Source: Candidatus Heimdallarchaeum aukensis
GTDB taxonomy: Archaea > Asgardarchaeota > Heimdallarchaeia > Heimdallarchaeales > Heimdallarchaeaceae
Length of the DNA: 64,000 bases
Assembly (NCBI GenBank): GCA_021513695.1
Contig: CP084166.1
Location: 1,568,001-1,632,000 of the forward strand
Reading direction: 5' to 3'
In this document: one piece after another, positions 12,664-34,947 of the stretch
Layout: each line of letters opens with the position of its first letter
Position numbering within the stretch: position 1 is the stretch's first letter
Program-made: the position numbers and the translations under genes
The notes under the pieces: model-generated
What the model saw: the letters and a program-made list of their open reading frames with translations, nothing else
What the model was told of the DNA's origin: nothing
Databases searched by the model: none

Positions 12664-13022
12664 GGTAATTACTTTATCAAAATAAATTTAAGAATTTGGA
12701 TAGACGGATGAAATTTAAGCAAAGAAAAATTGTACGATAATCGAAGGTTCTGTAAAAATAAAAAATAGGGTATTACACCCTACTTCTTTCTAACTGGTAG
12801 AGGAACTAATGAAGAAACTCTATGCTTATAATCTTTATATGCGCTGTATTTAGAAAGCAGTCTATTCTCCATAAGATACTTTTTTACGTAAAAAACTAAA
12901 TTTTTAGTTTGTGGAGTTATTAGACTAATAACAACCAGAAACACATTTGCATTAATAAAGAATATACAATATTATGGGTGTCACAACTTTTCCGCTGTCT
13001 TTATATATTCAATTATCATTTA

Positions 13023-17498: not shown

Positions 17499-17577
17499 TT
17501 TTTTTCTTATCAATTTTTTTTATTAACTTTGATTTTTCATTTTCTTACTTTGTTTATTCTTTGGGAAAATACTTTTA

Positions 17578-17904
17578 TTGTTCCTCTCTCACAATGTAGA
17601 TATGACCAAGCAAAATAAATCAAAATTTGATCGCATTACTTGGATTGTCACAGAGTTGATTATTGGCTTTGCTGCCGCAGGTTATGGAGTTTATGGTTTA
17701 TTTAAAGGTTTACCAGAACAAAAGATTGTCCACATAATTATTGCTTCTATTGGTGGGGTTCTATTATTACTTGCTTTTAGTCAGATTCTTATATTAAGAG
17801 GTAAAAAGAAAAGAACTAAAGAAATCAAGCATTGCCCCAAATGTGGAGCTGAAGTCCAAAAAGGAGATGAACACTGCAGAAAATGTGGAGAAAAATTAAA
17901 ATAA
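17578..17904 (+). CDS. Small membrane protein with a C-terminal zinc-ribbon
   Basis: Two TM helices, then CPKCGAEVQKGDEHCRKCGEKL (CxxC...CxxC). Confidence 0.35.
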   Translation: MFLSHNVDMTKQNKSKFDRITWIVTELIIGFAAAGYGVYGLFKGLPEQKIVHIIIASIGGVLLLLAFSQILILRGKKKRTKEIKHCPKCGAEVQKGDEHCRKCGEKLK

Positions 17905-17922
17905 TAATTATTTGCTCTTTTC

Positions 17923-18309
17923 TTATTTCCAAACTTTTAGAAACTCTGGCATTTCTTCGAAGTTTACAATTGGTATTGATACGGGCCATCTAGCATCACT
18001 TACTTCATCAGCGAATTCGAACTCTTCCTTTGGACTTGTTCTATATCTTATAAATGATCCTGCAGGAGGTTCATCATTTTCTATCCAGACCACTATTGGA
18101 AGAGCTCTTAAGTTATAGTATCCTAAGCTAGTGTTGAACATGAAAAAAATATTCCTATTCGCTTCTTTTTCATAAAAATATCCAATATAACCAGTCACTC
18201 TATCTGATAAAGTTGAAGCAATGAGTTTTATTATATCTGATAATCCCTTAAGTTTTATTGACGCAGCTTTTTTTATATTATCTACTATTTCATCCATATT
18301 AACCACCAA
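17923..18309 (-). CDS. Hypothetical protein (alpha+beta, 128 aa)
   Basis: ORF only. Predicted long N-terminal helix then beta-rich core. Not recognisably profilin, roadblock or longin. Confidence 0.25.
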   Translation of the reverse strand: MVVNMDEIVDNIKKAASIKLKGLSDIIKLIASTLSDRVTGYIGYFYEKEANRNIFFMFNTSLGYYNLRALPIVVWIENDEPPAGSFIRYRTSPKEEFEFADEVSDARWPVSIPIVNFEEMPEFLKVWK

Positions 18310-18328
18310 AAATAAAAAAATAAGAAGT

Positions 18329-18634
18329 TTAGAAGATTAATAGAATAGCTACAAGTAGACCATAAATTGCTACTGCTTCAATAAGCACGATGAACAAGAA
18401 GATTTTACCAAAAATCTCTGGTTTTTCAACTAATGCGCCTATACCAGCCGAACCAGCTGAACCCATTCCGAGTGCACTACCGATTCCTGCTAGACCTATT
18501 GCTAGAGCAGCGCCTATAGGTCTCATATCTCCTTCTTCACCTAGAGGAATTTCTGCAGCGAATGTACCTTTTGCGGTTATAATGATAAGCGCAACAATTG
18601 CTAGTAGTCCAATAATCAGATCATTTTTTTTCAT
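18329..18634 (-). CDS. atpK: A/V-type ATPase proteolipid subunit c (K)
   Basis: The ORF track starts at 18730, but the probable start is the internal Met (MKKNDLIIGLLAIV...). GAALAIGLAGIGSALGMGSAGSAGIGA glycine-zipper helix and a second helix with the conserved carboxylate (LIEAVAIYGLLVAILL). Confidence 0.8.
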   Translation of the reverse strand: MKKNDLIIGLLAIVALIIITAKGTFAAEIPLGEEGDMRPIGAALAIGLAGIGSALGMGSAGSAGIGALVEKPEIFGKIFLFIVLIEAVAIYGLLVAILLIF

Positions 18635-18834
18635 AATACGTCCCTTTTTCACGTGTTTAAAATTACAAATCATCGTTTCTTTATTAGTTTTTTGTATTGG
18701 ATACTTTTTAATATTGAATACTTTTTTCAATAAAAAAGTTTTAAGAATAACATATTTTATATTTCATGTATAAGTAAGAAAGCAAACCTATAATAAATGG
18801 GAAAACTTTATGATTATTAAGAAAAGATTCTATC

Positions 18835-19452
18835 GTGAGTAAAATGTTTGGAAACTTTATGAGATGGTTATTAGGAACTCAAAAATCAAGTAGAGACCAT
18901 ATAGTAAACCTTAAACTAACTATTCGCAGACTAGAAAGAGCTCAAAGGAAACTGGAGAGAGATGAATCAAGAATACAACTAAAAATGCGAACAGCTATTC
19001 AGCGTGGTGATTTAGAAGGTGCCCGTCTTTATGCTACAGATATTGTTCGTTCTCGTAAGTGGGTTTTAGGTTACCAGCGTTTAGTTTCTCGTATTAATGG
19101 TCTTATTTTTAAACTAGAACGAGCTGATTCTGCTGCTAACTTGGCAGCTGAAATGCATTCTATTGCAGGAGCTCTTCGACAAGCTAACGCTCAATTAAAT
19201 GTTCCTGATTTAGATCATGTTATTCAAGACATGGAACGTAGTATTGATGGAATTGAGGATTCAACTGAAACAATTGAAGATGGAATTGATGATCTTCTTA
19301 TTGCTGATACCGACCCAGCTGAAGTCGATAGGTTAATTGACCAAACAGCTACAGAGATGGGTGTTAGTGTAGGAGGAGAACTCCCTTCAGTAAGCGCTGT
19401 TGCAACAGACGATCTCGAGGAAGAGATTCAAAAATTAAGGAAAAAAGAGTAA
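18835..19452 (+). CDS. ESCRT-III, Vps2/24/46-like (Snf7 family)
   Basis: 205 aa. Basic N-terminal helical hairpin (RRLERAQRKLERDESRIQLKMRTAIQRGDLEGARLYA) and acidic C-terminal half, the CHMP2/3-like pattern. Immediately upstream of a second Snf7 paralog and Vps4. Confidence 0.8.
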   Translation: MSKMFGNFMRWLLGTQKSSRDHIVNLKLTIRRLERAQRKLERDESRIQLKMRTAIQRGDLEGARLYATDIVRSRKWVLGYQRLVSRINGLIFKLERADSAANLAAEMHSIAGALRQANAQLNVPDLDHVIQDMERSIDGIEDSTETIEDGIDDLLIADTDPAEVDRLIDQTATEMGVSVGGELPSVSAVATDDLEEEIQKLRKKE

Positions 19453-19467
19453 ATATGAGGTGTTTAT

Positions 19468-20127
19468 ATGGGTATGAAAAACTGGTTATTTGGAACCAAA
19501 CGCAAGGATGATGCTGAAGCTTTAGCTACACTCAAAGCTCAGATCAATCGATATGAGCACGAGTCCCGCAATTTAGAACGTCAAGCTGATGAACAAAAAT
19601 CTTTAGCTGCTAAGATGTTAAAGTCGGGTAATAAAGCTGGAGCTAAACAAGCTCTTAAGCGTCGAGCTATTTATATGAAACGTTTAAATCAGGTTCAAAA
19701 TATGCTAATGAACCTTCAGAGTCAGATTGATAGTATTCAAACTGCAACCTCTACTGTTGAAACAGTAAAGGCAATGGAGTTAGGTACGAAAGTTGTCAAG
19801 ACGAAGATGCAAGAAGTTGATGTAGAGAAAACTGAACGTGTAATGGATGAAGTTATGAGTCAACGTGATGAAATTGAAATGATGACAGAAGCTTTATCTG
19901 ATACTGCACTAAGTGAGAGCATTTTAGATTACGAAGATGATGTCGCAATTGATGATCAACTTGCTCAATTAGAAGCCGAGATGAATCTTGGTAAAACAGA
20001 AGAATTACCAGATCTTTCAGATCTTCCTTCAACTCCATCAGAAAAACCGACTGAAAAAGAAGAAGATACTTCTGACCTTGAAGCCGAATTAGCTTCTCTT
20101 AAGAAGAAGTTAAGTGATGACAAATAA
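19468..20127 (+). CDS. ESCRT-III, Vps20/32/60-like (Snf7 family)
   Basis: 219 aa. AKQALKRRAIYMKRLNQ Snf7-like helix, acidic C-terminus with a terminal MIM-like DLEAELASLKKKL. Confidence 0.8.
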   Translation: MGMKNWLFGTKRKDDAEALATLKAQINRYEHESRNLERQADEQKSLAAKMLKSGNKAGAKQALKRRAIYMKRLNQVQNMLMNLQSQIDSIQTATSTVETVKAMELGTKVVKTKMQEVDVEKTERVMDEVMSQRDEIEMMTEALSDTALSESILDYEDDVAIDDQLAQLEAEMNLGKTEELPDLSDLPSTPSEKPTEKEEDTSDLEAELASLKKKLSDDK

Positions 20128-20254
20128 TAATAATCAAATTCTTTTTTCAATTCTTTTTTTCATCATTTTAGAAACGAACAGTTTTTTAACGATAATGATG
20201 TTACTAGTTTAGTAATTCAATTAATAGGATTATTCAGTTAGAGAGGTTAAAGAA

Positions 20255-21400
20255 TTGAGCGCGCAAGGACTGATTGAACACGCACGTAAATTTGCAAAAA
20301 AAGCTTATGAACTTGATAAGGCAAAACAATACAATGAGGCAATACCACTTTATCTCGACGCTGCAGAAGCTCTAATGAAAGCAATAAAATTTGAAAGAAA
20401 TCCACAAGTGGGAAAGACATTAAAGAAAAAAGCAGAGATGTACATTGAACGAGCAAAAGATCTAAAAGAAATTATTGAGAAAAAAGCTGAAAAGGGGGCA
20501 GAAACAGGGTCAGACGAAGAATCTGATAAATTAGAAGGAGCAATTAGCGATATCATAGTTACAGAAAAGCCATCAGTTACTTTGGATGATATTGCAGGAC
20601 TAGAAGAAGCAAAACGGAATCTTCGAGAAGCAATAGTGTTACCTCTTGTAAGACCAGACTTATTTAGTGGTGCAAGAAGACCATGGAAAGGGATTTTACT
20701 TTTTGGCCCCCCAGGATGTGGAAAAACTCTTTTAGCAAAAGCAACAGCTGCAGAAGTAGAAGCTACGTTTTTTAATGTTAGTGCGTCCGCGGTTATATCC
20801 AAATGGTTAGGAGAATCTGAAAAATTAGTTAATACATTATTTAAAATTGCTCGTGAAAGGCAACCAAGTATAATTTTCATAGATGAAGTAGATGCTCTTA
20901 CCGGAGCACGTGGTGGCGAGCATGATGCTATGCGCAGAGTTAAAACTGAATTATTAACTTCTATGGATGGTTTATCTAGCTCTGCTCAAGATCGTCTTGT
21001 AGTTATTGGGGCTACTAACCTTCCTGAGTCTATTGATGGAGCTTTTCGCCGTCGTTTTGAGCGTCGTATTTACATTAAGCTTCCAGATTTTGAAGCGCGT
21101 AAAGCTATCTTTCAACTAAATGTCAAAGGAGTGGACTTAGCTCCCGATGTTGATTTTGAATCTTTAGCAGAGATTACAGAAGGTTATTCTGGAGCAGATA
21201 TTGCTATGGTTTGTCGCGATGCTATTATGACTCCTATTCGTGAACTTGATTTATCAGGAGACATTCATGACCCCAATATTAAAGCCAGACCAGTTACACA
21301 AAAAGATTTTCTTGAGTCTATTCAGTCAGTTAATCCTTCTGTAAGTGCAGAAGAAATCGAGAAATATGAGAAATGGAATGAAGAATTTGGTTCAGCGTAA
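20255..21400 (+). CDS. vps4: Vps4 AAA+ ATPase (MIT domain + AAA module)
   Basis: N-terminal MIT three-helix bundle (AKKAYELDKAKQYNEAIPLYLDAAEALMKA). Walker A GILLFGPPGCGKTLLAKA, Walker B IIFIDEVDAL, second region of homology, and C-terminal Vps4 helix. Confidence 0.95.
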   Translation: MSAQGLIEHARKFAKKAYELDKAKQYNEAIPLYLDAAEALMKAIKFERNPQVGKTLKKKAEMYIERAKDLKEIIEKKAEKGAETGSDEESDKLEGAISDIIVTEKPSVTLDDIAGLEEAKRNLREAIVLPLVRPDLFSGARRPWKGILLFGPPGCGKTLLAKATAAEVEATFFNVSASAVISKWLGESEKLVNTLFKIARERQPSIIFIDEVDALTGARGGEHDAMRRVKTELLTSMDGLSSSAQDRLVVIGATNLPESIDGAFRRRFERRIYIKLPDFEARKAIFQLNVKGVDLAPDVDFESLAEITEGYSGADIAMVCRDAIMTPIRELDLSGDIHDPNIKARPVTQKDFLESIQSVNPSVSAEEIEKYEKWNEEFGSA

Positions 21401-21412
21401 AAGGGTGTTTTT

Positions 21413-21705
21413 ATGATTTACCTTTTTACGTAAGTTTTTCGCACTCGGTCTTTCAAGGGAGAAAACAGGAGTTTCATCACTTGATAACTCAACCACAACA
21501 TACAATGAAAGGAAACGTGGTTAAGACAGACGTCATACACGAATCGTGGGAATCATAAAGAAGGAAAAGAAAAAAGTAAGAAAGGAGAAAAGAAAGGAGG
21601 TTATCTCCTTCTTTATTCTACTTTCTTTTCTTTCCTTCACTCCACGAGAGACGAAAAAACAAACAAATAATCCTCTAACAAGAGAGAATGTAAGTTTATA
21701 TTTTC
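21413..21705 (-). ncRNA. Candidate TnpB omega-RNA (reRNA) scaffold / right-end region
   Basis: Non-coding segment between the tnpB stop and the element terminus. Blocks are conserved with the paralog (e.g. acatacaatgaa...gacagacRtcatacacgaatcgtgggaatcataaagaag and ttccttcactccacgagagac) despite indels elsewhere. Confidence 0.4.
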
Positions 21706-21707
21706 AT

Positions 21708-23161
21708 CTACTGGGGCTGCAACCAATGGCTGAGCCCTTGGCAAACAGTGAAATGAGTGAGACTAAATTTACGACCAGTGAGTAGATCAGTAATAGTTGT
21801 TGCACGGGGGCGGAAAAGAGAACTAAGGAGCAGACGAGCGATATTCATTGCTCCTGTTAGATCAGAGTGGAAGGTGTAATTGCAAGAGGGACAATAAACT
21901 AACCCTCTAACGGGGCGGGTAACTTTTTTTCCGCAACGGGCACAGTGAGATGATGTTCCTCTTTCCTCTATCGTCAGAATTCGGTGAGAGGGAAAACCTC
22001 TAAGTATTAGTGCACGACGGATAAAAGAAAGAACAAGAGCATAGTTCCACTGGTGAAGTTTTCTTCGTGACTTGCGATTAGTTACTCCCTTATTTTTTTC
22101 TCGTCGAATGTATTTAGGATAACCTATAACAACGAAAAGATTATAGATCCGAGCATAAACCTCTATTGTCCACACGATAGCACTTACAAATTGATTGATA
22201 TACGCTCGTCTGACGTTTCTATACCTCCGACGGAGACGTTTGAGAAAACGGTAAACTTGGTGTTTTTTACCCGATTGGTCGTTTAAAGCTGCTTTCCTCT
22301 GAAGACGGGAAAGTTTGAGTTTATATCGATGATTAACTTTATTCCACTGTTTGGTATACTAGAACTTTATTTCTTTACTTGTTACCTTCTTTTTCGGGGT
22401 CAGTAGCACTTCTACCGCAGGAATGTTTATCCCTAGATCTATTCCCAGCACAGCTGGGGGAAGAAAAGAAGAGTCAGAAGAAAGATTATCTCCCTGAAGG
22501 AAAGAAGAAGGAAGAACTTTTGAATGAAAATATATCCACCATTCACGTGTAGAACGTTTGTATCTTATTTCTAAACTTTTTACTCTTTCTTTAATTCTTT
22601 TTGATGAAACTCGCTCATCTCTAAAGGTAACCACAATCGCTGATGAAAACGTGTTTTTCTTTTCCACCTATCTAACGAGTCTCGTATTCCTACCCACCAA
22701 CGAGAAAGAGTGTTATTCTTATCTTTTGGTAGATGGACGAGGATGAACCTTTTTTTATTAATTAATTGTCTTCTTGCTCTCTTTCTTGGAGGACGAGTAT
22801 TGTTAGGTCTATATCCTTGCTCATATAGTTGCACAGCTATATCTCTACATTCTTGAAACTCATCGTGAGAACAATAGGGAAACATTTTCTTCATATCGTG
22901 AGGAACAGTCGTTCTTCTTTCTTCCTCTTTTTTTACTCTCGAGGTCGTTAATGTCAATTCGTCTAATTTTCCTTTATGTACTTTTATTTTCCCTTCTTTT
23001 GCTTTAATACCTATTTTTTTTCTGTTATGGTGTATAATTCTCACATACTTTTCTATTATTCTAGTATCTCTCCCCGTTATTCTCCTTAACTTTTCTTTTT
23101 TTCTCGTCGTCAATACTTCATTCTTCACTCTCACCTTTAACGTTTTGACGACGTCCTCCAT
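21708..23161 (-). pseudogene. tnpB: tnpB pseudogene (frameshifted; fragments 22580-23161, 22359-22667, 21708-22175)
   Basis: Three ORF fragments in different frames together cover the 484-aa intact paralog, from the N-terminus MEDVVKTLKVRVKNEV... to the C-terminus ...HCARCGKKV...CPSCNYTFHSDLTGAMNIA. At least two frameshifts were seen. Confidence 0.75.
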
Positions 23162-23240
23162 CCTTTTTTTCTCCTCTTATTTTACTCTCTCTTTTTTTCT
23201 ATTTTTTTCTCTTCTTTTACTTCTTCTCTTCCTCATTATA

Positions 23241-23260
23241 CTTTTTTTCCCTATAAAAAG
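23241..23260 (-). promoter_or_regulatory. Candidate TATA box for tnpB inside the left end (reads TTTTTATAGGG on the coding strand)
   Basis: The motif ctttttttccctataaaaag is conserved in both paralogous elements (also 34681-34698). A related tttttttcctatataaa lies upstream of the third tnpB (63559-63578). Confidence 0.3.
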
Positions 23261-23329
23261 TCCTTTCTTTTCTTTTTTTCTCATTATTCTTCCTCAATTT
23301 TTATATAAAGTTATGTAAAATAGTAAATC

Positions 23330-24130
23330 ATGGCTACAATGGAAAAACAAAAAGATAATGAATTTGAGCAAATTGATCTTGAAAAATTGAAAGAAGAAAA
23401 GAAAATATCAGAAGATAAGCTTAAGCTTATTGAAGCCAGTATTAAGGGATTAAAAGTTTCAGAAGAAGAACTGAAGTCCACGAAACCTATTGTTAGAGAA
23501 GAAGCAAGATTAGAACTAACAGAAGACACAAAGACGAAGCTAATTAAAGAATTTGAGCAAAGTTTACCTGATTGGGTTAACAAGCCTTGGATGTATGTCA
23601 CCCCAAAAAAGGCAAATCAAGTTGAGTCTTGGTTAGACAGTTGGTCATCAGTCATGCTTGATTATACAAAGAAATTTGTTATTCATATTGTTAATGTCAA
23701 TTCTCTTAGAGAAACTTATCCTTTTTGTAATAAGAAAATAAGAAAAGAACTTACCATCGATCAAATTCGTGATATCATCGATTTTCTTGAAACAAAGGGT
23801 TTTGCTCTTTGGATAAATGATAGGACAAAATTCTTTGAGAAACTTTTTGCAAAGATACTTGGAAAACCTTTAACAAAAAAGATCCGTGCAAAGATAGAAT
23901 GGAAAACAAAAGAAGAATTTGCTGAAGATTTACTTAAATGGATGATTGAAACCGGTAGAGTAGTTGAAGTTCACTCTTTATATGATTTAACAAAATATGA
24001 ACAACCCTGGTCTTCTTTACCTTCAGATGATTTAATCCATGTATGCAATTTACTCGTAGAAAAAGGTTCTGCTAGATGGTTAAATAGAGAAAGAACTATA
24101 ATTTCCTTTGAAGCAACAAAGGTATTCTAA
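23330..24130 (+). CDS. ESCRT-II Vps25-like protein (tandem winged helix) with an N-terminal charged coiled-coil extension
   Basis: PFCNKKIRKELTIDQIRDIIDFLETKGFALWINDRTKFFEKLF matches the Vps25 WH1 pattern (LF.N..I.R.L....I..IL..L...G.AEW). The second WH is GRVVEVHSLYDL...LIHVCNLLVEKGSARWLN. The annotated ATG overlaps the IS terminus; the real start may be the next Met. Confidence 0.65.
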   Translation: MATMEKQKDNEFEQIDLEKLKEEKKISEDKLKLIEASIKGLKVSEEELKSTKPIVREEARLELTEDTKTKLIKEFEQSLPDWVNKPWMYVTPKKANQVESWLDSWSSVMLDYTKKFVIHIVNVNSLRETYPFCNKKIRKELTIDQIRDIIDFLETKGFALWINDRTKFFEKLFAKILGKPLTKKIRAKIEWKTKEEFAEDLLKWMIETGRVVEVHSLYDLTKYEQPWSSLPSDDLIHVCNLLVEKGSARWLNRERTIISFEATKVF

Positions 24131-24183
24131 CTTTAATTTTTATTTTAATTTTATTTATTTACTATTTTTTGTGATGTAATGCT

Positions 24184-24621
24184 ATGTTTAAAAATTATAT
24201 ATTGAATAGACTTTTGAGATTTATGTCTTTAGACGATGAAGAATTACAAAGGATTCGAGAAAAAAAGGCACAACAACTTAGGCAAATTTTAGAACAGAGA
24301 AAATCAAAAATGGAACAACTTAAACAAGAGGAAACAGCGCCAAAAAGCATTACAAAAGAGGACAAGTATCGTTTAATGAATTATTTTCTAACTGATGACG
24401 CTTTTTCTTATTGGAAGAGTCTATATGAAAATCCACAAAAGCATAATACAGCAGAAACAATTTTCATTAATTTGCTCTATCTGATTAAGATTGGTTTTAT
24501 GGAAGGAAAACTTATCTCTCTTCTAGGAATTAAAAAATTAGAAAGAAAAATAGATAATATTCCTTCTAAAATCACAATAAAGAGAAAAGGAGAAAAAGAA
24601 AGATCCAAAGTTTTGGATTAA
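24184..24621 (+). CDS. PDCD5/TFAR19-like dsDNA-binding family protein
   Basis: LDDEELQRIREKKAQQLRQILEQRKSK... N-terminal helix and a C-terminal ...LLYLIKIGFMEGKLISLLGIKKLERKIDN...ITIKRKGEKE pattern typical of PDCD5-like proteins. Confidence 0.45.
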   Translation: MFKNYILNRLLRFMSLDDEELQRIREKKAQQLRQILEQRKSKMEQLKQEETAPKSITKEDKYRLMNYFLTDDAFSYWKSLYENPQKHNTAETIFINLLYLIKIGFMEGKLISLLGIKKLERKIDNIPSKITIKRKGEKERSKVLD

Positions 24622-24697
24622 TAATTGACTTTTACTTATTAGGTTACATTTATTTAGGATAATGAAAATAAAGTATTAGAAAGGAGCTGATGGATAA

Positions 24698-24934
24698 ATG
24701 AAGTTGAGTATTGTTACCGCAATAGGAGGAGGTCTTTTAGAATTAGATGTTGATAGCCATCAAACAATTGCACAACTTAAAAGAGAAGTTTCAAGAATTA
24801 AAAAGATACCTGCAAATACAGTTATTTTGGTTCATCATGGTCAACAGTTAGATGATGGTGAAACAATTAAGAGTTGCGGATTACAAGAAGGAGATAAACT
24901 CTATCTAATTGCAAGAACAAAAGGTGGACTTTAG
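24698..24934 (+). CDS. Ubiquitin-like beta-grasp protein with C-terminal Gly-Gly
   Basis: 78 aa, ends ...ARTKGGL. Embedded next to an E1-like gene and ESCRT genes. Confidence 0.75.
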   Translation: MKLSIVTAIGGGLLELDVDSHQTIAQLKREVSRIKKIPANTVILVHHGQQLDDGETIKSCGLQEGDKLYLIARTKGGL

Positions 24935-25009
24935 CTTTTCTATTTCAAAATTTTTTTAGAAGAATAGAAACTGTTTTATTACTTCTAAAAGATATTTTTG
25001 TGAAAGTGG

Positions 25010-26014
25010 ATGTCTAAAGAAGGTAGATATGCGAGACAGACTCTCATACCTGGTTGGAATCAGAAGAAACTCAACAAATCAACAGTTATTATTGTTGGTG
25101 TGGGAGCAATTGGATCATATGTATCAACGATTTTAGCTTCTTCAGGAGTAAAAAATCTCATTCTAATTGATTTTGATACTATTGAAATCTCTAATCTTAA
25201 TCGTCAATTACTATTTCGGGATGGAGATATTGGAAAATCCAAATCTGAAATTGCAGCTATGCGATTATCGGAACTAAATCCAGATATTAACATTACCTTT
25301 CATCATAAGAAGATGCAAGATTTACCTATTTCTATTTACAAAAAAGCAGATGTCATTGTGGCTTGTCTTGATACCTTCATTGGAAGAAGATGGATAAATT
25401 CACTTGCTGTAAAAATAAACAAACCTTTAATTTTAGGTGGAATGTTTGCTTTTCTAGGAGATGTTCAAGTTGTTTTACCAAAAAAAACTGCTTGCTTTGA
25501 TTGTCAACCTTTAGTTGCAGAAAGAGAACTTGCGCAAGCTTGTACTCCATTCGGAGAAGAAAGGAAGAAAAACAGAGAAGAAAAAGAGGATGAAGCGAAA
25601 TTACCATCTGTAGCCACATTGTCTGCGATTATCGGAGGAATTATGGCACAAGAAGCCTTAAAACTTCTTTTAGACATAGGTGAACCAATCAAGAATTATC
25701 TTTTCTATGATGGATTACATAATGCAACAACAATAATTGAACTTGCAAGAAGAAAAAAAGATTGTCCAACTTGTGGAGAACTATATGAGTTGGAACAAGT
25801 CGAATTTGTGGTAAATAAAGATAATACCGTCAAAGAACTATTAATCCAATTAGGTTTACAATTCGGACTTGAGAGCCCAGACATTATGATTAAAGGGAGG
25901 ATACTCCCTCACGATTCAAAAATCCAAGAACTAGGTATAAAAAATAACATGAAGGTTTTTGTAATGGACAAAAATTTAGCTTCACCAATCAAGTTAAAGT
26001 TAAAGATTGAGTGA
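25010..26014 (+). CDS. E1-like ubiquitin-activating enzyme (ThiF/MoeB/UBA family) with a C-terminal beta-grasp-like tail
   Basis: Rossmann nucleotide motif VGVGAIGSYV, ...LIDFDTIEISNLNRQ..., zinc knuckles CFDCQ and CPTCG, and a candidate catalytic Cys in a QACTP context. Confidence 0.85.
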   Translation: MSKEGRYARQTLIPGWNQKKLNKSTVIIVGVGAIGSYVSTILASSGVKNLILIDFDTIEISNLNRQLLFRDGDIGKSKSEIAAMRLSELNPDINITFHHKKMQDLPISIYKKADVIVACLDTFIGRRWINSLAVKINKPLILGGMFAFLGDVQVVLPKKTACFDCQPLVAERELAQACTPFGEERKKNREEKEDEAKLPSVATLSAIIGGIMAQEALKLLLDIGEPIKNYLFYDGLHNATTIIELARRKKDCPTCGELYELEQVEFVVNKDNTVKELLIQLGLQFGLESPDIMIKGRILPHDSKIQELGIKNNMKVFVMDKNLASPIKLKLKIE

Positions 26015-26025
26015 AAAAAGAAAAT

Positions 26026-26751
26026 TTAGGTGTGTGACAGTCCAGGGAAATAATATTTAGTTCCTTCAGCATAGGAACTATCTACTCTTGCTATACCATT
26101 TTCTTCAAAAAATGATAAGCAACGATTAATTCTTTCCTCTGCCCACCCTGTTCTAAGTAATAGATCTTCTTTTGTTACAAATCCTGTTCTTGAAGCAATG
26201 TTTAATATTACATCATGGTCGGGACTGAATTCAACAGGAGCAAATTCTACTAGTTTCACTCCAGATTCTAAAACTTTGAAAGGTGGAATTAATTTTGAAT
26301 TTATGAGTTTCTCTAATGAACGATACAAGTCATCAATTGTAACTAGTTTTCCAGGTCTAGTTTTATTTAATTGGGTAAACAATTCACCTACAGACATTAT
26401 ACCTCCATTTTCTTCTATAAGTTTTTGACCCAAATCCATGATTTCGTTTGCTAAAACATCATAGAAACCTTTTCCTGTTAATCTATCTTTTAGAGTTGGA
26501 GCTTCTTTCCATTCATATCTCCCTATTTCTGTAGGTAAGCCTAGTTCTTCTCGCAGGCCAGCAAGTTTTTCATAATATTCTTTATTTTCAACTATTTTAT
26601 CACCATATTTCTTTTCAAATTTCTTTAGTTGCTTTTTAACTTGTTTAATATTTTCCAACATTTGTTCTAATTCTTTTATCATTAATTCGGCTTCTTTAAC
26701 TTGGAAAGCTGACTTCACTTTTAATTTCTTTTCAATATCTCTTAAGCCCAA
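26026..26751 (-). CDS. ESCRT-II Vps22/Vps36-like (EAP30 family) tandem winged-helix protein
   Basis: GGIMSVGELFTQLNKTRPGKLVTIDDLYRSLEKL and ...TKEDLLLRTGWAEERINRCLSFFEENGIARVD match the EAP30 WH1/WH2 patterns. Confidence 0.75.
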   Translation of the reverse strand: MGLRDIEKKLKVKSAFQVKEAELMIKELEQMLENIKQVKKQLKKFEKKYGDKIVENKEYYEKLAGLREELGLPTEIGRYEWKEAPTLKDRLTGKGFYDVLANEIMDLGQKLIEENGGIMSVGELFTQLNKTRPGKLVTIDDLYRSLEKLINSKLIPPFKVLESGVKLVEFAPVEFSPDHDVILNIASRTGFVTKEDLLLRTGWAEERINRCLSFFEENGIARVDSSYAEGTKYYFPGLSHT

Positions 26752-26823
26752 CTTTAATCACTATTTTTTATTTGTCAGTGAGATATAAAAAATATACTAT
26801 TTAATTTCGCAATTAGCTTAGAG

Positions 26824-27132
26824 TTAAAAAAGGAGAGGAAGTCTTCTAATCCACTCTTTAATTGAATTCATAAGCTTTTTAGATTCATTTGGAGGAAGAA
26901 AAGCTGCTAGTTTGTCTTTATAGTTTTTGTATAGTTTTTGATAAACGCTGTCCATTTCATCAACAATTGAATCATTTACCAAATTGATTTTTTTAACAAG
27001 ATGTTTTATCTCTTCCAACTCTTCTAAGATGTATGAACAGTCAATTTTTATTTCTAAGAGATCCATCAACTCGAATAAACTATCTTTTGCTTTATTATAG
27101 GTATTTTCTAAAGATTTTCTCCTAGAAATCAT
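26824..27132 (-). CDS. Small all-helical protein, candidate Vps28 C-terminal-domain-like ESCRT-I component
   Basis: 102 aa predicted helical bundle, located between the Vps23-like and Vps22/36-like genes on the same strand. Assignment is by context only. Confidence 0.3.
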   Translation of the reverse strand: MISRRKSLENTYNKAKDSLFELMDLLEIKIDCSYILEELEEIKHLVKKINLVNDSIVDEMDSVYQKLYKNYKDKLAAFLPPNESKKLMNSIKEWIRRLPLLF

Positions 27133-27168
27133 GTTTACTCCTCTAAAAAGGCTGGATAAAAGATAGGA

Positions 27169-28638
27169 CTACATATCTTTTAAAATTCGTCTAAATTCGT
27201 TTAACCATCTTGATGCTTGGAATTCTAGTTTTTCACAATCGTCTTCATTTATTATTTCACTTGGTTTATAATTTGAAAGAATGTCTTTCCAGTTTTTCAT
27301 ATCGCTGAGCATCCAATGATCTTGCGGAATAGATGGAAACGAGTGCAAAACATGAATTAGCTCTTCTACGTCAGCCAACAGCAAATCAGCTCGTGCGACT
27401 GATTTAAGCCTTGTTAGATCAATTAATTCAATTGCAGCTGAAACAAAATCAGCTGTTTTTACAGGCATTTTCTTTAAGGATTCAAATGGTATCATTTCAA
27501 CATCTTTAGTTCCAGTTCCTTCAGCCATTTGTAGCAATCTCATTCCTTTGTCAAATCTATTTAGCAGATTTTCTTGCTCTATAAACGAATCGAGATCAAA
27601 TCCACCTAATTGTTCCAGTTTCATTCTTGTTTTGAAAACTGTTCTTATTAGTGATCTTAACTGCTTTTTATATGCAACTTGCTCAATCTCACCATTTTCA
27701 TACCCTCTCGCTAAATTATCTAATGTCACTATTGCTGCATATAAATCAGCTTCAAAATCTAATCTTTTATCTAAATCACTAGGCATTACTTGTCCTCCAA
27801 CATTTTCTAAATAAGCTAATTTTTTATTTGTCTTATAACTTTCCACTGAATATTTTCTATAAAGTTTCAAGTAATCAACACTTGAAAGATCTCCATCATC
27901 AAATTTCTCATTTAATAGCTCTAATAAGTCATTAGATGCTCTTGAACTTGCTTTTAAATCATCGGTTACAGAAATTGTAAGTTCTTTTAATGAATGTGAA
28001 GGCTCAGCTTTCTTGATTAGAGCAGCTCTTTTTTCCTCAATTTGTTTATTTAGTTCGTTTATCTGCTGCTGATACGCTTCTATCTCTGCTTCAATAGTAC
28101 TTTTTTCTATCGATGTTTGACTCCGTTCATTAAAGGATGGTACACTTTGCTTACGTACAGTGTGACGTGAAACTGTTCTTGGTTTCATCGGTTGAACTAC
28201 AGATCTAGACACACTCCTAGCTGTAGACATATGCTTTGTTCTTAATGGTCTTGCAGGAACATTAGCAAATAATCGCCGAATATCATTTATAACTTGATAA
28301 ATATGATAGCGTGGTTTCCATTGAGCGAGTATTTGCAAACTAAGAAAGTCATTGTCGTCAACATTAGGATGATTTACTTTAGGAGTAATTTCAACTTGAG
28401 GAGGAATTCTTGGGAACTCTGGAGAGATATATATTGTAGCATAAACAGTTATCTTCGTTCCTTGAATTATCCCTACAGGGCCTTTCCACTTTCTTAAATT
28501 GCCTCCTACTGGCTCAAATCCTTCAACATTATTATAAATTAATTGCATCTCATTAGCAAGAATCTGATCTAGAGAAATTTGTCTCACCTTTACTCTTCTA
28601 TTATTGTTATAAACTTCAAAGTTTAAAAAATATTGCAT
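27169..28638 (-). CDS. ESCRT-I Vps23/Tsg101-like protein with N-terminal UEV (inactive E2) domain
   Basis: N-terminal UBC fold with an HPN motif (KVNHPNVDDNDF...LQILAQWKPRYHIYQVINDIRRLF) but no catalytic Cys after it, which makes it a UEV domain. Followed by a Pro/Ser-rich linker, a long coiled-coil stalk and a C-terminal helical domain. Confidence 0.7.
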   Translation of the reverse strand: MQYFLNFEVYNNNRRVKVRQISLDQILANEMQLIYNNVEGFEPVGGNLRKWKGPVGIIQGTKITVYATIYISPEFPRIPPQVEITPKVNHPNVDDNDFLSLQILAQWKPRYHIYQVINDIRRLFANVPARPLRTKHMSTARSVSRSVVQPMKPRTVSRHTVRKQSVPSFNERSQTSIEKSTIEAEIEAYQQQINELNKQIEEKRAALIKKAEPSHSLKELTISVTDDLKASSRASNDLLELLNEKFDDGDLSSVDYLKLYRKYSVESYKTNKKLAYLENVGGQVMPSDLDKRLDFEADLYAAIVTLDNLARGYENGEIEQVAYKKQLRSLIRTVFKTRMKLEQLGGFDLDSFIEQENLLNRFDKGMRLLQMAEGTGTKDVEMIPFESLKKMPVKTADFVSAAIELIDLTRLKSVARADLLLADVEELIHVLHSFPSIPQDHWMLSDMKNWKDILSNYKPSEIINEDDCEKLEFQASRWLNEFRRILKDM

Positions 28639-28729
28639 TCAAAAAAAAGAGTCTTTTCTTGAGAAAAAAATATATGAAAAAAAATTGATTATAATTCTAA
28701 ATTACAATAGAACCTAGGAATAAACTCTT

Positions 28730-29272
28730 TTACTTTCTATTTTTGACTAAAAGTGTAGCTAGTTTCACAAATGCTTCTTGAACATGTTCTCCTGTAAGTG
28801 CACTTGTTTTTATGAAATCCAAACTATTGATTTTGTTTTGTAATGATTTACATTCATCATCTGATACAGCAATTTTATCTTCTAAATCATTTTTATTTCC
28901 AACTAAGATGGTAAGGGTGTTCTTTCCACAGTTTTTAACAAGTTCAGAGTTCCATTTCTCTAGATCAGTTAGTGTTGAATTCCTGGTTAAATCGAAAACC
29001 ATCAGTGCTGCTTTTGCTCCTTTAAAGAAAGTATGTCTTATAAACCTAAATCTATCTTGTCCTGCTAGATCCCAAATTGAAAGAGCTACAACTGTATTGT
29101 CCTCTAATGTAACAAATTTCTCACTCGGTTCCATACCTATTGTCATCAGATAACTTTGTTCAAAACGATTATGAACAAAACGTTGTACAAGAGATGTCTT
29201 TCCTACAGCGGCGGCACCTAATAGAAGTATTTTGAAATTGAAATCAGGACGAATTGAACGCATTATTCTCAA
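28730..29272 (-). CDS. Ras-superfamily small GTPase, Rab-like
   Basis: G1 GAAAVGKTSL, G3 WDLAGQDRF (compare Rab WDTAGQERF), G4 GNKNDL, G5 TSAL. 180 aa with no lipidation-style tail inspected. 91 bp upstream of the Vps23-like gene on the same strand. Confidence 0.9.
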   Translation of the reverse strand: MRIMRSIRPDFNFKILLLGAAAVGKTSLVQRFVHNRFEQSYLMTIGMEPSEKFVTLEDNTVVALSIWDLAGQDRFRFIRHTFFKGAKAALMVFDLTRNSTLTDLEKWNSELVKNCGKNTLTILVGNKNDLEDKIAVSDDECKSLQNKINSLDFIKTSALTGEHVQEAFVKLATLLVKNRK

Positions 29273-29275
29273 CTT

Positions 29276-29572
29276 TTACATTTTTTTTGCTTTTACAAGC
29301 TCTTCTTTTAAACTTTTAAGATAGTATGTTTCAAAATTTTCTTCTGCGCGTTTAATAGTAGTAAGAGAAATACAGAGATCTAATATGAATTCATATTGTT
29401 CTTTTTTCTCTTTCTGTGGTTTGAATGCTTTAAATTTTTTTAATAAATACTCGGCTAACTTTGACGCTTCTTTTTTTGTTAATGTTCCTTGCTCATATAA
29501 ATTAATAATTAACTCCATTTTCTCTATAGTAATATCATTGTTAATCTCTTTTAACGACAAAATTTTACTCAT
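29276..29572 (-). CDS. Hypothetical helical protein translationally coupled to the Rab-like GTPase gene
   Basis: 98 aa. Its stop is 3 nt before the GTPase start. Confidence 0.3.
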   Translation of the reverse strand: MSKILSLKEINNDITIEKMELIINLYEQGTLTKKEASKLAEYLLKKFKAFKPQKEKKEQYEFILDLCISLTTIKRAEENFETYYLKSLKEELVKAKKM

Positions 29573-32912: not shown

Positions 32913-33171
32913 ATGATTTACTTTTTTCCGTAAGTTTTTCGCACTCGGTCTTTCAAGAGAGAAAAACAATAAAATAGCTTAATCGCTTGGTAACTCAACC
33001 TAAACATACAATGAATGGGAGTGGTTGAGACAGACATCATACACGAATCGTGGGAATCATAAAGAAGAAAGGAAGAAAAAAGTAAAACCTTTTTTCTTTT
33101 TTCCTTCACTCCACGAGAGACAAAAAAGAAAGACTAACTCTAACACAAGAGGATAGAATTAGTTTCTTTTC
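32913..33171 (-). ncRNA. Candidate TnpB omega-RNA scaffold / right-end region
   Basis: Conserved with 21413-21705 (see there). Lies 3' of the tnpB stop and runs to the element terminus. Confidence 0.4.
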
Positions 33172-33173
33172 GT

Positions 33174-34628
33174 CTACTGGGGCTGCAACCAATGGCTGAG
33201 CCCTCGGCAAACAGTGAAATGAGTGAGACTGAATTTCTGACCAGTGAGGTAATCAGTAATGGTGTTACATCGAGGACGGAAAAGATATCCAAGGAACTTA
33301 CGAGCGATATTCATTCCCCTTGTTAGATCAGAATGAAAAGTGTAGTTACAGGAAGAACAATGAACTAACCCTCTAACGGGACGGGAAACTTTCCTCCCGC
33401 AACGAGCACAGTGAGAAGATGTCCCTCTTTCCTCTATTGTTAATATTCGGTGAGATTCAAAGCCTCGAAGTATAAGTGCCCGACGGAGAAGAGAGAGAAC
33501 AAGAGAAAAATTCCACTGATGAAGTTTTCTGCGAAACTTACGATTACTTTTTTCTTTTTCTTTTCCTTCTCGAACATGTTTGGGGTAACCTACAACAACG
33601 AAAAGGTCATACACTTGTGCATAACTCTCTATCGTCTGCACAACATCGCTTATAAATTGGTGAATATACGCGCGTTTAACGTTTCTATACCTCCGACGAA
33701 GAAGACCAAGAAAACGGTAAACTTGGTGCTTTTTACCTAACTGGTCGTTTAAAGCTGCTTTCCTCTGAAGACGGGAAAGTTTGAGTTTATATCTATGATT
33801 GATTCTATTCCACTGTTTAGTATACCAGAATTTTATCTCTTTTTTTGTTAACTTCTTTTTAGGAGTCAGTAACACTCCTGCAGCAGGAATGTTTATCCCT
33901 AGATCTATTCCCAGCACAGCTGGGGGAAGAGAAGAAGAATTATCTCCTTGACTTGTGAGATAAAAGGAAGAAGGAGGAAGAACTTTTAATTGGAAATACA
34001 CCCACCATTCACGTGTAGAACGTTTGTATCTTAGTTCTAGACTTTTCACCCTCCCTTTCTTTAACTCTTTCTGGTGAAAATCGCTCATCTCTAAAGGTAA
34101 CCACAACTTCTGATGATAAGGTGTCTTTCTCTTCCAGGTATCTAACGAGTCTCTTATTCCTACCCACCAACGAGTAAGTGTATTATTCTTCTCTTTTGGT
34201 AGATGGACAAGAATGAACCTTTTTCCATTAATTAATTGCCTTCTTGCTCTCTTTATTGGAGGACGAGTAGGACGGGGTCTATACCCTTGTTCATATAATT
34301 GTACAGCTATATCTCTACACTCTTGGAATTCATTGTGAGAACAATAGGGAAACATTTTCTTCAAGTCGTGAGGAACAGTCTTTCTCCTCTCTTCTTCTTT
34401 TACTCTTGAAGTAGTCAGTGTCAACTCGTCTAATTTTCCTCTATGTACTCTTATTTTCCCTTTTTTTGTTCTTATACTTATTTTTCTTCTGTTGTGGTGT
34501 ATAATTCTCACATATTTTTCTATTATTCTCGTGTCTCTCCCCGTTATTCTCCTTAATCTTTCCTTTTTTCTCGTCGTCAATACCTCATTCTTTATTCTCA
34601 CTTTTAATGTTTTGACGACGTCCTCCAT
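33174..34628 (-). CDS. tnpB: TnpB (RuvC-like RNA-guided nuclease family, IS200/IS605 OrfB)
   Basis: RuvC-I LGIDLG, C-terminal zinc finger HCARCGRKV...CSSCNYTF and RuvC-III HSDLTRGMNIA. The canonical RuvC-II glutamate is not evident: the sequence reads LFVVVGYPK where the third TnpB in the window has AIVIEEIS. Confidence 0.85.
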   Translation of the reverse strand: MEDVVKTLKVRIKNEVLTTRKKERLRRITGRDTRIIEKYVRIIHHNRRKISIRTKKGKIRVHRGKLDELTLTTSRVKEEERRKTVPHDLKKMFPYCSHNEFQECRDIAVQLYEQGYRPRPTRPPIKRARRQLINGKRFILVHLPKEKNNTLTRWWVGIRDSLDTWKRKTPYHQKLWLPLEMSDFHQKELKKGRVKSLELRYKRSTREWWVYFQLKVLPPSSFYLTSQGDNSSSLPPAVLGIDLGINIPAAGVLLTPKKKLTKKEIKFWYTKQWNRINHRYKLKLSRLQRKAALNDQLGKKHQVYRFLGLLRRRYRNVKRAYIHQFISDVVQTIESYAQVYDLFVVVGYPKHVREGKEKEKSNRKFRRKLHQWNFSLVLSLLRRALILRGFESHRILTIEERGTSSHCARCGRKVSRPVRGLVHCSSCNYTFHSDLTRGMNIARKFLGYLFRPRCNTITDYLTGQKFSLTHFTVCRGLSHWLQPQ

Positions 34629-34947
34629 CTTTCTTTCCTCTTTTCTTATTCTAAACTTTTTTCTTCTCCTTTAATTATACTTTTTTTCCCTATAAAAATT
34701 CCTCACTTTTTCTTCTCTCCCTCCCTCTTCCTTCCTTCTTTCCTTTCTTTTTTCGTTGCACTCTTCCTCAATTTTTATAAATTTACGTAAAAAAGTAAGT
34801 CATTTATTATGCTTTTCTTTAAAGTTTTTACAGTAAGTGCTGAATGTTTCTATTTCATTTATCCCTGAAAGAGGACAATAGTATAAAAAAGTGTAAAAAA
34901 CAATAATTAAGAAAATATTTATAGTTTAACAAAAATAAAAAACATCA

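Follow-up and report, generated by a model that had tools for sequence, protein, structure and literature searches.

TnpB-only elements of Heimdall-group archaea end in long terminal inverted repeats and lie at C-AT-G-like sites

Introduction

How the abundant TnpB-only elements are mobilized is unsettled, the usual assumption being that a Y1 TnpA acts on them in trans. Elements of the IS200/IS605 and IS607 families, as well as the TnpB-only elements, have been described as lacking both terminal inverted repeats and target duplications (PMC3627910, PMC6188088), and a preliminary description of the DNA analyzed here, which took IS200/IS605 elements normally to lack such repeats, agrees with these sources. 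Inverted repeats have been reported for six DDE-linked TnpB branches, in which solo TnpBs with inverted terminal repeats are mobilized in trans, and repeats have been found around Asgard Cas1-TnpB loci (PMC10691335). Here we describe a family of TnpB-only elements of which two copies, A and B, are found in a stretch of 64,000 nucleotides from Candidatus Heimdallarchaeum aukensis (contig CP084166.1, positions 1,568,001 to 1,632,000), hereafter called the window. The literature that we searched held no description of the ends of this Asgard clade, of its CATG target or of its truncated copies.

The elements run from (C)AT/G... to ...C/AT(G) (a slash marks a boundary or junction), have true but imperfect inverted repeats of 22-36 bp, lie at C-AT-G-like sites and hold no transposase gene. 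The family resembles the IS1341-type elements of IS200/IS605 in its size (~1.9 kb), its single tnpB with no transposase in cis, the lack of any duplication beyond the junction bases, a ~260-nt structured region 3' of the gene that reaches the right end, and a short motif in the left flank. It differs from them by its true terminal inverted repeats, by the lack of detected subterminal hairpins, by a mostly fixed G in the right flank, and by a TnpB without the usual RuvC-II glutamate. We consider the chances evenly balanced that this is a non-autonomous Heimdall-group transposon family, with a TnpB-type nuclease as its sole gene followed by a guide-RNA scaffold, which an enzyme supplied in trans moves at the AT. 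That the family mobilizes unlike the textbook TnpB elements is likely.

Results

Two copies with long terminal repeats

Copies A and B are ~85% identical and lie in unrelated flanks. Their features are listed below, with left and right ends named in TnpB orientation.

32913-34803, minus strand: copy B, whole element, 1891 bp including the outer AT at each end; boundaries as in copy A and the 13 other full copies
34778-34803, minus strand: left-end inverted repeat of copy B, ATGACTTACTTTTTTACGTAAATTTA in TnpB orientation; 19/21 against the reverse complement of the right end
34629-34777, minus strand: upstream region of the copy B tnpB, with the conserved block TTTTTATAGGGAAAAAAAGTA (upstream alignment)
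33174-34628, minus strand: intact tnpB of copy B, 484 aa, its sole intact open reading frame (ORF)
32913-33240, minus strand: structured 3' region of copy B, presumed omega/reRNA scaffold; overlaps the end of the ORF and reaches the last base of the right end
32913-32938, minus strand: right-end inverted repeat of copy B, last 9 nt GTAAATCAT; 9-mer invariant in aligned right ends
21413-23331, minus strand: copy A, whole element, 1919 bp, decayed; similar to copy B, and its site is empty in related strains
21708-23161, minus strand: tnpB pseudogene of copy A, in three ORF pieces (193, 102 and 155 aa)
23306-23331, minus strand: left-end inverted repeat of copy A; abuts the ESCRT-II gene (23330-24130) at its ATG start codon
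21413-21438, minus strand: right-end inverted repeat of copy A; 12 nt past the Vps4 stop codon

On the forward strand copy B is bounded by ATGATTTAC at 32913-32921 and GTAAGTCAT at 34795-34803, and copy A by ATGATTTAC at 21413-21421 and GTAAATCAT at 23323-23331. The similarity between the copies begins exactly where the left 9-mer does and ceases exactly where the right one ends, so the inverted 9-mers that the preliminary description had placed at the ends of both copies do delimit them, and their coordinates were confirmed. The ATGATTTAC-type 9-mer occurs five times in the window, with ~1.2 occurrences expected by chance, and those at 28369 and 28843 are apparent chance matches. Reading inward over the first 21 positions, the two arms agree at 19/21 positions in copy B and 18/21 in copy A. 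What had been described as 9-bp repeats are thus the real outer part of terminal repeats that are longer than this, and imperfect.

The block TTTTTATAGGGAAAAAAAGTA upstream of tnpB is kept in most copies and lost through a deletion in one (L009); it is a probable archaeal TATA-type promoter.

Further copies and subfamilies

Altogether 15 full copies were identified, namely the two in the window, twelve in Ca. Heimdallarchaeum endolithica (which also has two truncated copies) and one in a JGI metagenome. In TnpB orientation all 15 start with (C)ATG... and end with ...GTAAATCAT(G). The right-end 9-mer is identical in 16/16 aligned right ends and is also found in one further JGI copy. At the left end the 9-mer varies (ATGCTTCTA, ATGCATTTA, ATGAGTCTA, ATGTTTCAC, ATGCTTTAC and others), and what is kept there is the ATG together with an inner repeat block. 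The 13 additional copies share the termini and the right 9-mer, but not the left one.

Two subfamilies were distinguished, with the end patterns ATGNTTNNNTTTTTTACGTAA and ATGNTTTACTTTTTGYG. Subfamily 1 has TTTTTTACGTAA at both ends, in a repeat of ~22-26 nt with arms that match at 23-27 aligned positions. Subfamily 2 has TTTTTGCG(T)AA...TTTG(T)CGAAC at both ends, in a repeat of ~36 bp with arms that match at 30-31 of 38 positions. One copy (L003, 3838-5696) is chimeric, combining a subfamily-1 left end with a subfamily-2 right end, which indicates recombination between the subfamilies. Beyond these, a 31-nt inverted repeat that starts and ends with CATG, CATGGTTGTTTTTCCCC.../...GGGGAAAATAACTCATG, was found in a relative with 43% TnpB identity from another Heimdall genome. 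The loci of two further relatives (L023 and L149) showed no convincing repeat, and none was found flanking the gene in a third (L024). Since 15 full copies and the 43%-identity relative carry them, the inverted repeats are real, and typical of the family in at least part of the clade.

An ordinary IS1341-type element with 9-mers that match by coincidence, through AT-rich sequence or a palindromic target, might be invoked on the grounds that the genome is 67% A+T and that the bare 9-mer occurs twice elsewhere in the window. We give this next to no credence. A 21-nt pattern, ATGAYTTACYWTTTTMCRTAA, fits all four ends of copies A and B with no mismatches, where 0.15 matches with up to three mismatches would be expected; the repeats recur in the 13 further full copies and in the distant relative; and the boundaries are borne out by an empty site.

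Junctions and target site

The empty site is that of copy A, and was found in contigs from related strains (e.g. L015, 3990-4003), where an identical 266-aa ESCRT-II protein is encoded directly after Vps4 with no element in between. It reads GGTGTTTTT-ATG-GCG, and the occupied site in the window reads GGTGTTTTT-ATG-ATTTAC at the left junction and GTAAATC-ATG-GCT at the right junction. One ATG is target sequence. The A and T of the ESCRT-II start codon are at the same time the outer AT of copy A. A search for further empty sites, by synteny between the H. endolithica flanks and the window, gave none.

In TnpB orientation CAT is common to both junctions of copy A and ATG to both junctions of copy B, and only AT is common to the two copies. 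In all 15 full copies each junction has an AT; the empty site has one. The preliminary statement that the copies have no flanking direct repeat therefore holds beyond the termini, but not for the outer AT, which behaves like a 2-bp repeat or a shared crossover. Several other assignments of the junction bases were rejected. The whole ATG...CAT cannot be element sequence without shared bases, as the empty site retains one ATG. A 3-bp duplication is ruled out, as with constant ends there is no one trinucleotide that suits both copies in the window, and so is a crossover at CA or TG, each of which is absent from one junction of copy A or B. A 4-bp CATG duplication is disfavored by the TATG of the empty site against the CATG of the right junction. 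Because the junction is palindromic, an AT duplication is indistinguishable from a shared overlap; a 2-bp AT duplication, a 2-bp AT crossover and insertion of a CAT-terminated element 3' of CAT predict identical sequences and cannot be separated on them.

Flanking bases were counted for 19 copies, i.e. the 15 full copies and four truncated ones. The base before the left ATG is C in 18/19 (P = 1e-13), and the base after the right CAT is G in 14/19 (P = 5e-8). The next base outward on the left is never T (0/19; C 8, A 8, G 3), whereas the mirrored position on the right has T in 9/19 and C in none (Fisher 0.001 for the difference between the sides). The target is near the palindrome C-AT-G, with an extra constrained position on the left that makes it V-C-A-T. 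The 9-mers had also been proposed to be palindromic cleavage or target-adjacent motif (TAM)-proximal sites. This applies to their outermost bases, which are shared with the target, but not to the inner part, a genuine repeat that is subfamily-specific at both ends and recurs in the 43%-identity relative.

Three of the 19 insertions lie exactly on start codons with the ATG preserved, namely those at the ESCRT-II gene in the window, at an enolase gene and at a 264-aa ORF. A general preference for start codons is ruled out by there being just these three. Those besides copy A are:

L155, 5443-7308: insertion at the start codon of the enolase gene
L011, 5688: insertion at the start codon of the 264-aa ORF

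The repeats and junctions together raise the prospect of a DDE enzyme that moves the element by cut-and-paste or copy-out, in the manner of IS30, IS630 or IS5, with TnpB as a passenger. This would be a sub-case of movement in trans at the AT, and we regard it as possible if rather unlikely. The transposase would bind the repeats and make a 2-bp staggered cut at the AT of a palindromic CATG, which would leave an AT target duplication. Inverted repeats of 22-36 bp, an AT that the empty site has once and the occupied site at each junction, and a palindromic target preference all suit such an enzyme, and repeats combined with a 2-bp duplication fit an IS30- or IS630-like one in particular. The target's mimicry of the element's terminal bases is something that a DDE enzyme has no reason to require, and the outermost 9 nt at the left differ widely from copy to copy; nor do the truncated copies described below, with their precise C/ATG left junction, show any repeat-like sequence by the new end. 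No DDE gene was seen at any locus examined. Parallels have been described: inverted terminal repeats are found in each of the six DDE-linked TnpB branches, some solo TnpBs have the same ends as transposase-bearing elements (PMC10691335), and Fanzor1 elements such as SPu-1 are ~2.1 kb long with one ORF, 33-bp repeats and a 2-bp duplication (PMC3627910). Like the DDE-linked TnpB elements (e.g. IS630-TnpB) and Fanzor1 elements (SPu-1 and the SfAV element), the family here is a nuclease-only, repeat-bounded unit with a putative 2-bp junction repeat; it differs in its Asgard host and in having AT instead of TA at the junction.

Truncated copies

Four independent copies are truncated at the 5' side. 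All of them have an intact right end and restart at C/ATG, as follows (flank in lower case before the slash).

L013, 4007-4713: truncated copy, junction ...gtcc/ATGCTCAAATG; full copies have T/ATG at this point
L014, 4000-4660: truncated copy, junction ...cca/CATGTTCGAG; in full copies this is the sole internal CATG of the element
L133, 838-986: truncated copy, junction ...tta/CATGATTCC; full copies have T/ATG
L111, 2087-2273: truncated copy, junction ...gcgc/ATGGAGTG; full copies have C/GTG

The truncation points within the element are CTAT/G, ACAT/G, TTAT/G and TCGT/G, i.e. internal CATG-like sites; at random, a junction would read CATG with a probability of 0.003. Search patterns able to detect 3'-truncated copies revealed none. 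Decayed solo right-end relics of ~100 nt, ending in GTAAATAAT, were also observed (L005, 130-250, minus strand; L111, 2859-2960). In both H. endolithica and a contig from a marine-sediment metagenome the neighbor of the relic is the same 337-aa gene, which points to an old fixed remnant.

The truncated copies and the one-sided left flank bring in an HUH enzyme acting in trans, either a Y1 TnpA of the IS200/IS605 kind or a Y2 enzyme of the IS91 or Helitron kind, which would nick one strand after CAT at both ends. The left cut would fall in the flank, V-C-A-T/G, and the right cut inside the element, T-C-A-T/, so that insertion would take place 3' of VCAT without duplication, and the inverted repeat would be a binding feature or incidental. 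We hold this to be a possibility, again of rather low probability. It would account for the empty site, which retains exactly one CAT in TnpB orientation, for a 4-nt one-sided left motif whose first position is never T and which is not mirrored on the right, and for a right end that finishes in TCAT, near to the target motif. Furthermore, all four truncated copies hold the right end and begin with the G after a flanking CAT at internal CATG-like sites, and thus resemble the products of IS91 one-ended transposition, which stops at target-like tetranucleotides. The likeness to IS91 and Helitrons comprises the lack of any duplication beyond the junction bases, a target motif by one end, the invariable retention of one end and copies that stop at target-like internal sites; the family differs from these in that no Rep/HUH gene was seen and that both ends carry the same long inverted repeat. 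Also to be counted for an HUH enzyme is that Y1 is the commonest partner of TnpB (PMC10691335).

Several observations speak against it. When the 70-nt ends were folded as single-stranded DNA, no consistent stable hairpin was obtained (minimum free energies of -1.7 to -7.4 kcal/mol), and z was ~0 in 5/6 folds. The candidate stems are weak (4-6 bp) and change register between the subfamilies, while the repeats stay conserved as linear sequence over 22-36 bp. The right-flank base, which is G in 74% of the copies, is moreover variable in IS200/605 elements (PMC10711439), and neither a Y1 nor a Y2 gene was present in any locus examined.

The TnpB protein and its clade

The TnpB of copy B matches the Pfam family PF07282 with 27.5 bits (cut-off 26.3) and the NCBIfam model guided_TnpB with an E-value of 8e-21, at a score under the family cut-off. 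A search of solved structures with this single sequence gave nothing convincing, whereas a profile of 15 relatives matches solved Cas12f and TnpB chains with an E-value of 5e-18; this profile search showed no special similarity of the TnpB/Cas12f-like protein to Fanzor. Residues D242 and D434 and a CxxC...CxxC zinc finger are invariant across the 15 diverse relatives. The usual RuvC-II glutamate is replaced by an equally invariant G347, and an alternative invariant glutamate, E400, is found in an ExxTS motif. By these sequence criteria the protein appears to be a divergent TnpB. It probably belongs to the 'RuvC-II rearranged' types that PMC10691335 describes, and is probably active.

All 255 detectable relatives come from Asgard archaea, in the Heimdall, Thor and Promethearchaeota groups, and a second, profile-based protein search added more Asgard relatives only. 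A relative in Thorarchaeota is ~580 aa long with a C-terminal extension, and is found in one fixed genomic place (L024, 1-6740; L157-L159). It is divergently oriented to a ~1598-aa gene without a Pfam match, and the next gene begins 10-40 nt past its stop codon. This Thorarchaeota TnpB looks immobile, perhaps domesticated.

The structured 3' region

The last 330 nt of the element have a conserved structure with 68 predicted pairs and 98.5% of cells paired. Compensatory changes between the subfamilies were found in 7 pairs (28 cells), a cell count reached by 0/500 shuffles. No Rfam family matches the region. One predicted helix joins GUUUGC at the end of the ORF with GUAAAU of the right 9-mer; as both are invariant, it is unproven. 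From the modeled structure, the region is presumably a guide-RNA scaffold, and the invariance of the right-end repeat would be explained by its lying inside this scaffold. Fanzor1 elements have a parallel placement of the repeat within the guide-RNA scaffold (PMC10711439). The DDE-linked TnpB and Fanzor1 elements further resemble the family here in that the gene ends within ~260 bp of the end of the element.

With the RNA in view, the element might even be autonomous. No partner transposase would then be needed, and the RuvC-II-rearranged TnpB with its own RNA would make or direct the cuts that follow CAT at the two ends. The left-end repeat is exactly complementary to the 3' end of this RNA, and the sole part that no truncated copy has lost is the right end, where the RNA is encoded. 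We consider this very unlikely; if true, the archaeal lineage nearest to eukaryotes would possess a TnpB that itself carries out RNA-guided transposition.

Search for a mobilizing enzyme

No transposase gene adjoins any of the 15 full copies, the four truncated copies or six distant relatives (~27 loci examined, not whole genomes). The six relatives (P0029, P0053, P0110, P0074, P0011 and P0154) are all solo, with no transposase in their context. Searched for by type, no Y1 HUH tnpA, Y2, serine recombinase or DDE gene was found in these loci, and they did not include the tnpA with matching ends that the preliminary description had suggested looking for elsewhere in the genome. Paralogous flanking ORFs, identified in an all-against-all comparison and then annotated with Pfam, were radical SAM, NosD-like and ABC proteins and included no transposase.

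The end motifs were also used as queries. In ~270 kb of Heimdall-group loci they revealed no autonomous DDE-bearing relative with the same repeats. A metagenome scan with ATGNTTNNNTTTTTTACGTAA, a loose pattern, gave at least 120 loci, mostly random. Among the matches listed there was no transposase-bearing unit and no locus with a convincing inverted partner, and the only real pieces of the element were L044, L111 and L133. Viral contigs scanned with the right end CGTAAAAAAGTAAATCAT gave four chance matches. Four metagenome contigs (L047 at 347, L112, L123 and L140) have the AT-rich sequence AAATGTTTATATTTTTTACGTAAC in common; ~900 nt from it lies a weak inverted partner ending in AAATCAT. This sequence is probably unrelated to the TnpB family described here.

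The surroundings of copy A

Copy A parts the tight Vps4/ESCRT-II gene pair by 1.9 kb and yet recreates the ATG (window 21401-23332). Its left repeat places TTTATATAAA ~25-30 nt upstream of the ESCRT-II ATG, where it might serve as an outward promoter. Around copy A, window positions 17500-29300 hold a complete Asgard ESCRT and ubiquitin cluster, with genes for two Snf7 proteins, Vps4, ESCRT-II, ubiquitin, a ThiF-type E1, EAP30 and a UEV/Vps28 fusion, a gene set that marks the host as a member of the Heimdall group. A borderline match to the Rfam family SNORD36 (a C/D-box snoRNA) at 19239-19313 on the plus strand, inside a Snf7 coding sequence (31.9 bits against a cut-off of 30, E-value 0.38), is probably due to chance. 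Another observation concerns an intergenic 34-nt degenerate palindrome at 12871-12904, ATAAGATACTTTTTTACGTAAAAAACTAAATTTT, which resembles the left repeat joined to the right repeat at their common ACGT core. It could be a relic mini-element formed by deletion between the repeats, or a chance resemblance.

Discussion

How the family may move

Under the reading of a repeat-bounded element moved in trans, the enzyme would bind the double-stranded repeats at both ends with two-fold symmetry, and would break and join DNA at the central AT. Were the element to form a circle, its right end, the AT and its left end would make up a perfect palindrome, ...AAAAAGTAAATC-AT-GATTTACTTTTT..., like the crossover site of a recombinase, and the target C-AT-G would mimic the core of this joined-end palindrome. 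A circle junction ...AAAAAGTAAATCATGATTTACTTTTT... with a single AT is what would be expected under a serine or an HUH enzyme. The right-end repeat would double as the 3' end of the guide-RNA scaffold. By analogy with characterized systems, TnpB, guided by the right flank, may then restore the element by cutting empty V-C-A-T sites. Occupied sites would escape cutting through the T of the element's own TCAT, which may also explain why T never occurs at this position of the left flanks. The reading of an element moved in trans is supported by boundaries that are identical in all 15 full copies, be they from the window, from H. endolithica or from the JGI metagenome.

As to the enzyme, a serine recombinase and a DDE enzyme taken together account for about half of the probability in our estimation. 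We tentatively favor a serine recombinase of the IS607 type, acting via a circle, a candidate that is plausible without being probable; something else, including the Cas1-like transposases of Asgard archaea (PMC10691335), is unlikely. The family is like IS607 in a dinucleotide that recurs at each junction and is found once in the target, with no real duplication, in the fixed right-flank base, and in short repeated motifs inside the ends, with imperfect inverted repeats near the ends (PMC6188088). A fixed base in the right flank is a mark of IS607-type elements and not of IS200/605 (PMC10711439). IS607 transposases furthermore form their assembly on a single end and capture another, unbound DNA (PMC6188088), a behavior that could explain the truncated copies that keep the right end. 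The family differs from IS607 in that the overlap would be a palindromic AT and not GG, in that the repeats are exactly terminal, long and symmetric, and in that no serine recombinase gene was found at the loci examined.

Several points weigh against a two-fold symmetric enzyme acting in trans. No partner enzyme was found at the loci examined, so that its central step is one that we infer. IS607 ends are described as asymmetric with a GG overlap, and we know of no DDE family that duplicates AT. The asymmetry of the flanks (T 0/19 on the left against 9/19 at the mirrored right position) fits a one-sided, HUH-type target motif, although it could alternatively result from selection for the target-adjacent motif of TnpB. 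The 5'-truncated copies fit DDE cut-and-paste poorly, and one of them, L111, restarts at a point that reads CGTG in full copies and hence offers no AT for a 2-bp exchange of the serine type. Lastly, the chimeric copy L003 weakens the argument that both ends co-vary.

Implications

The clade represents a divergent TnpB that, judging from its conserved residues, is probably active, with VCAT as its predicted short target-adjacent motif. The family provides landmarks with which the assumption of Y1 mobilization in trans can be tested, namely exact ends, long repeats, a 4-bp palindromic target, a polymorphic empty site and precise truncations. Its architecture in the Heimdall group, i.e. a nuclease-only element with inverted repeats, 2-bp junction bases and a repeat that presumably lies within the guide-RNA scaffold, is like that of the eukaryotic Fanzor1 elements, and thereby bears on how TnpB came to ride repeat-bounded transposons.

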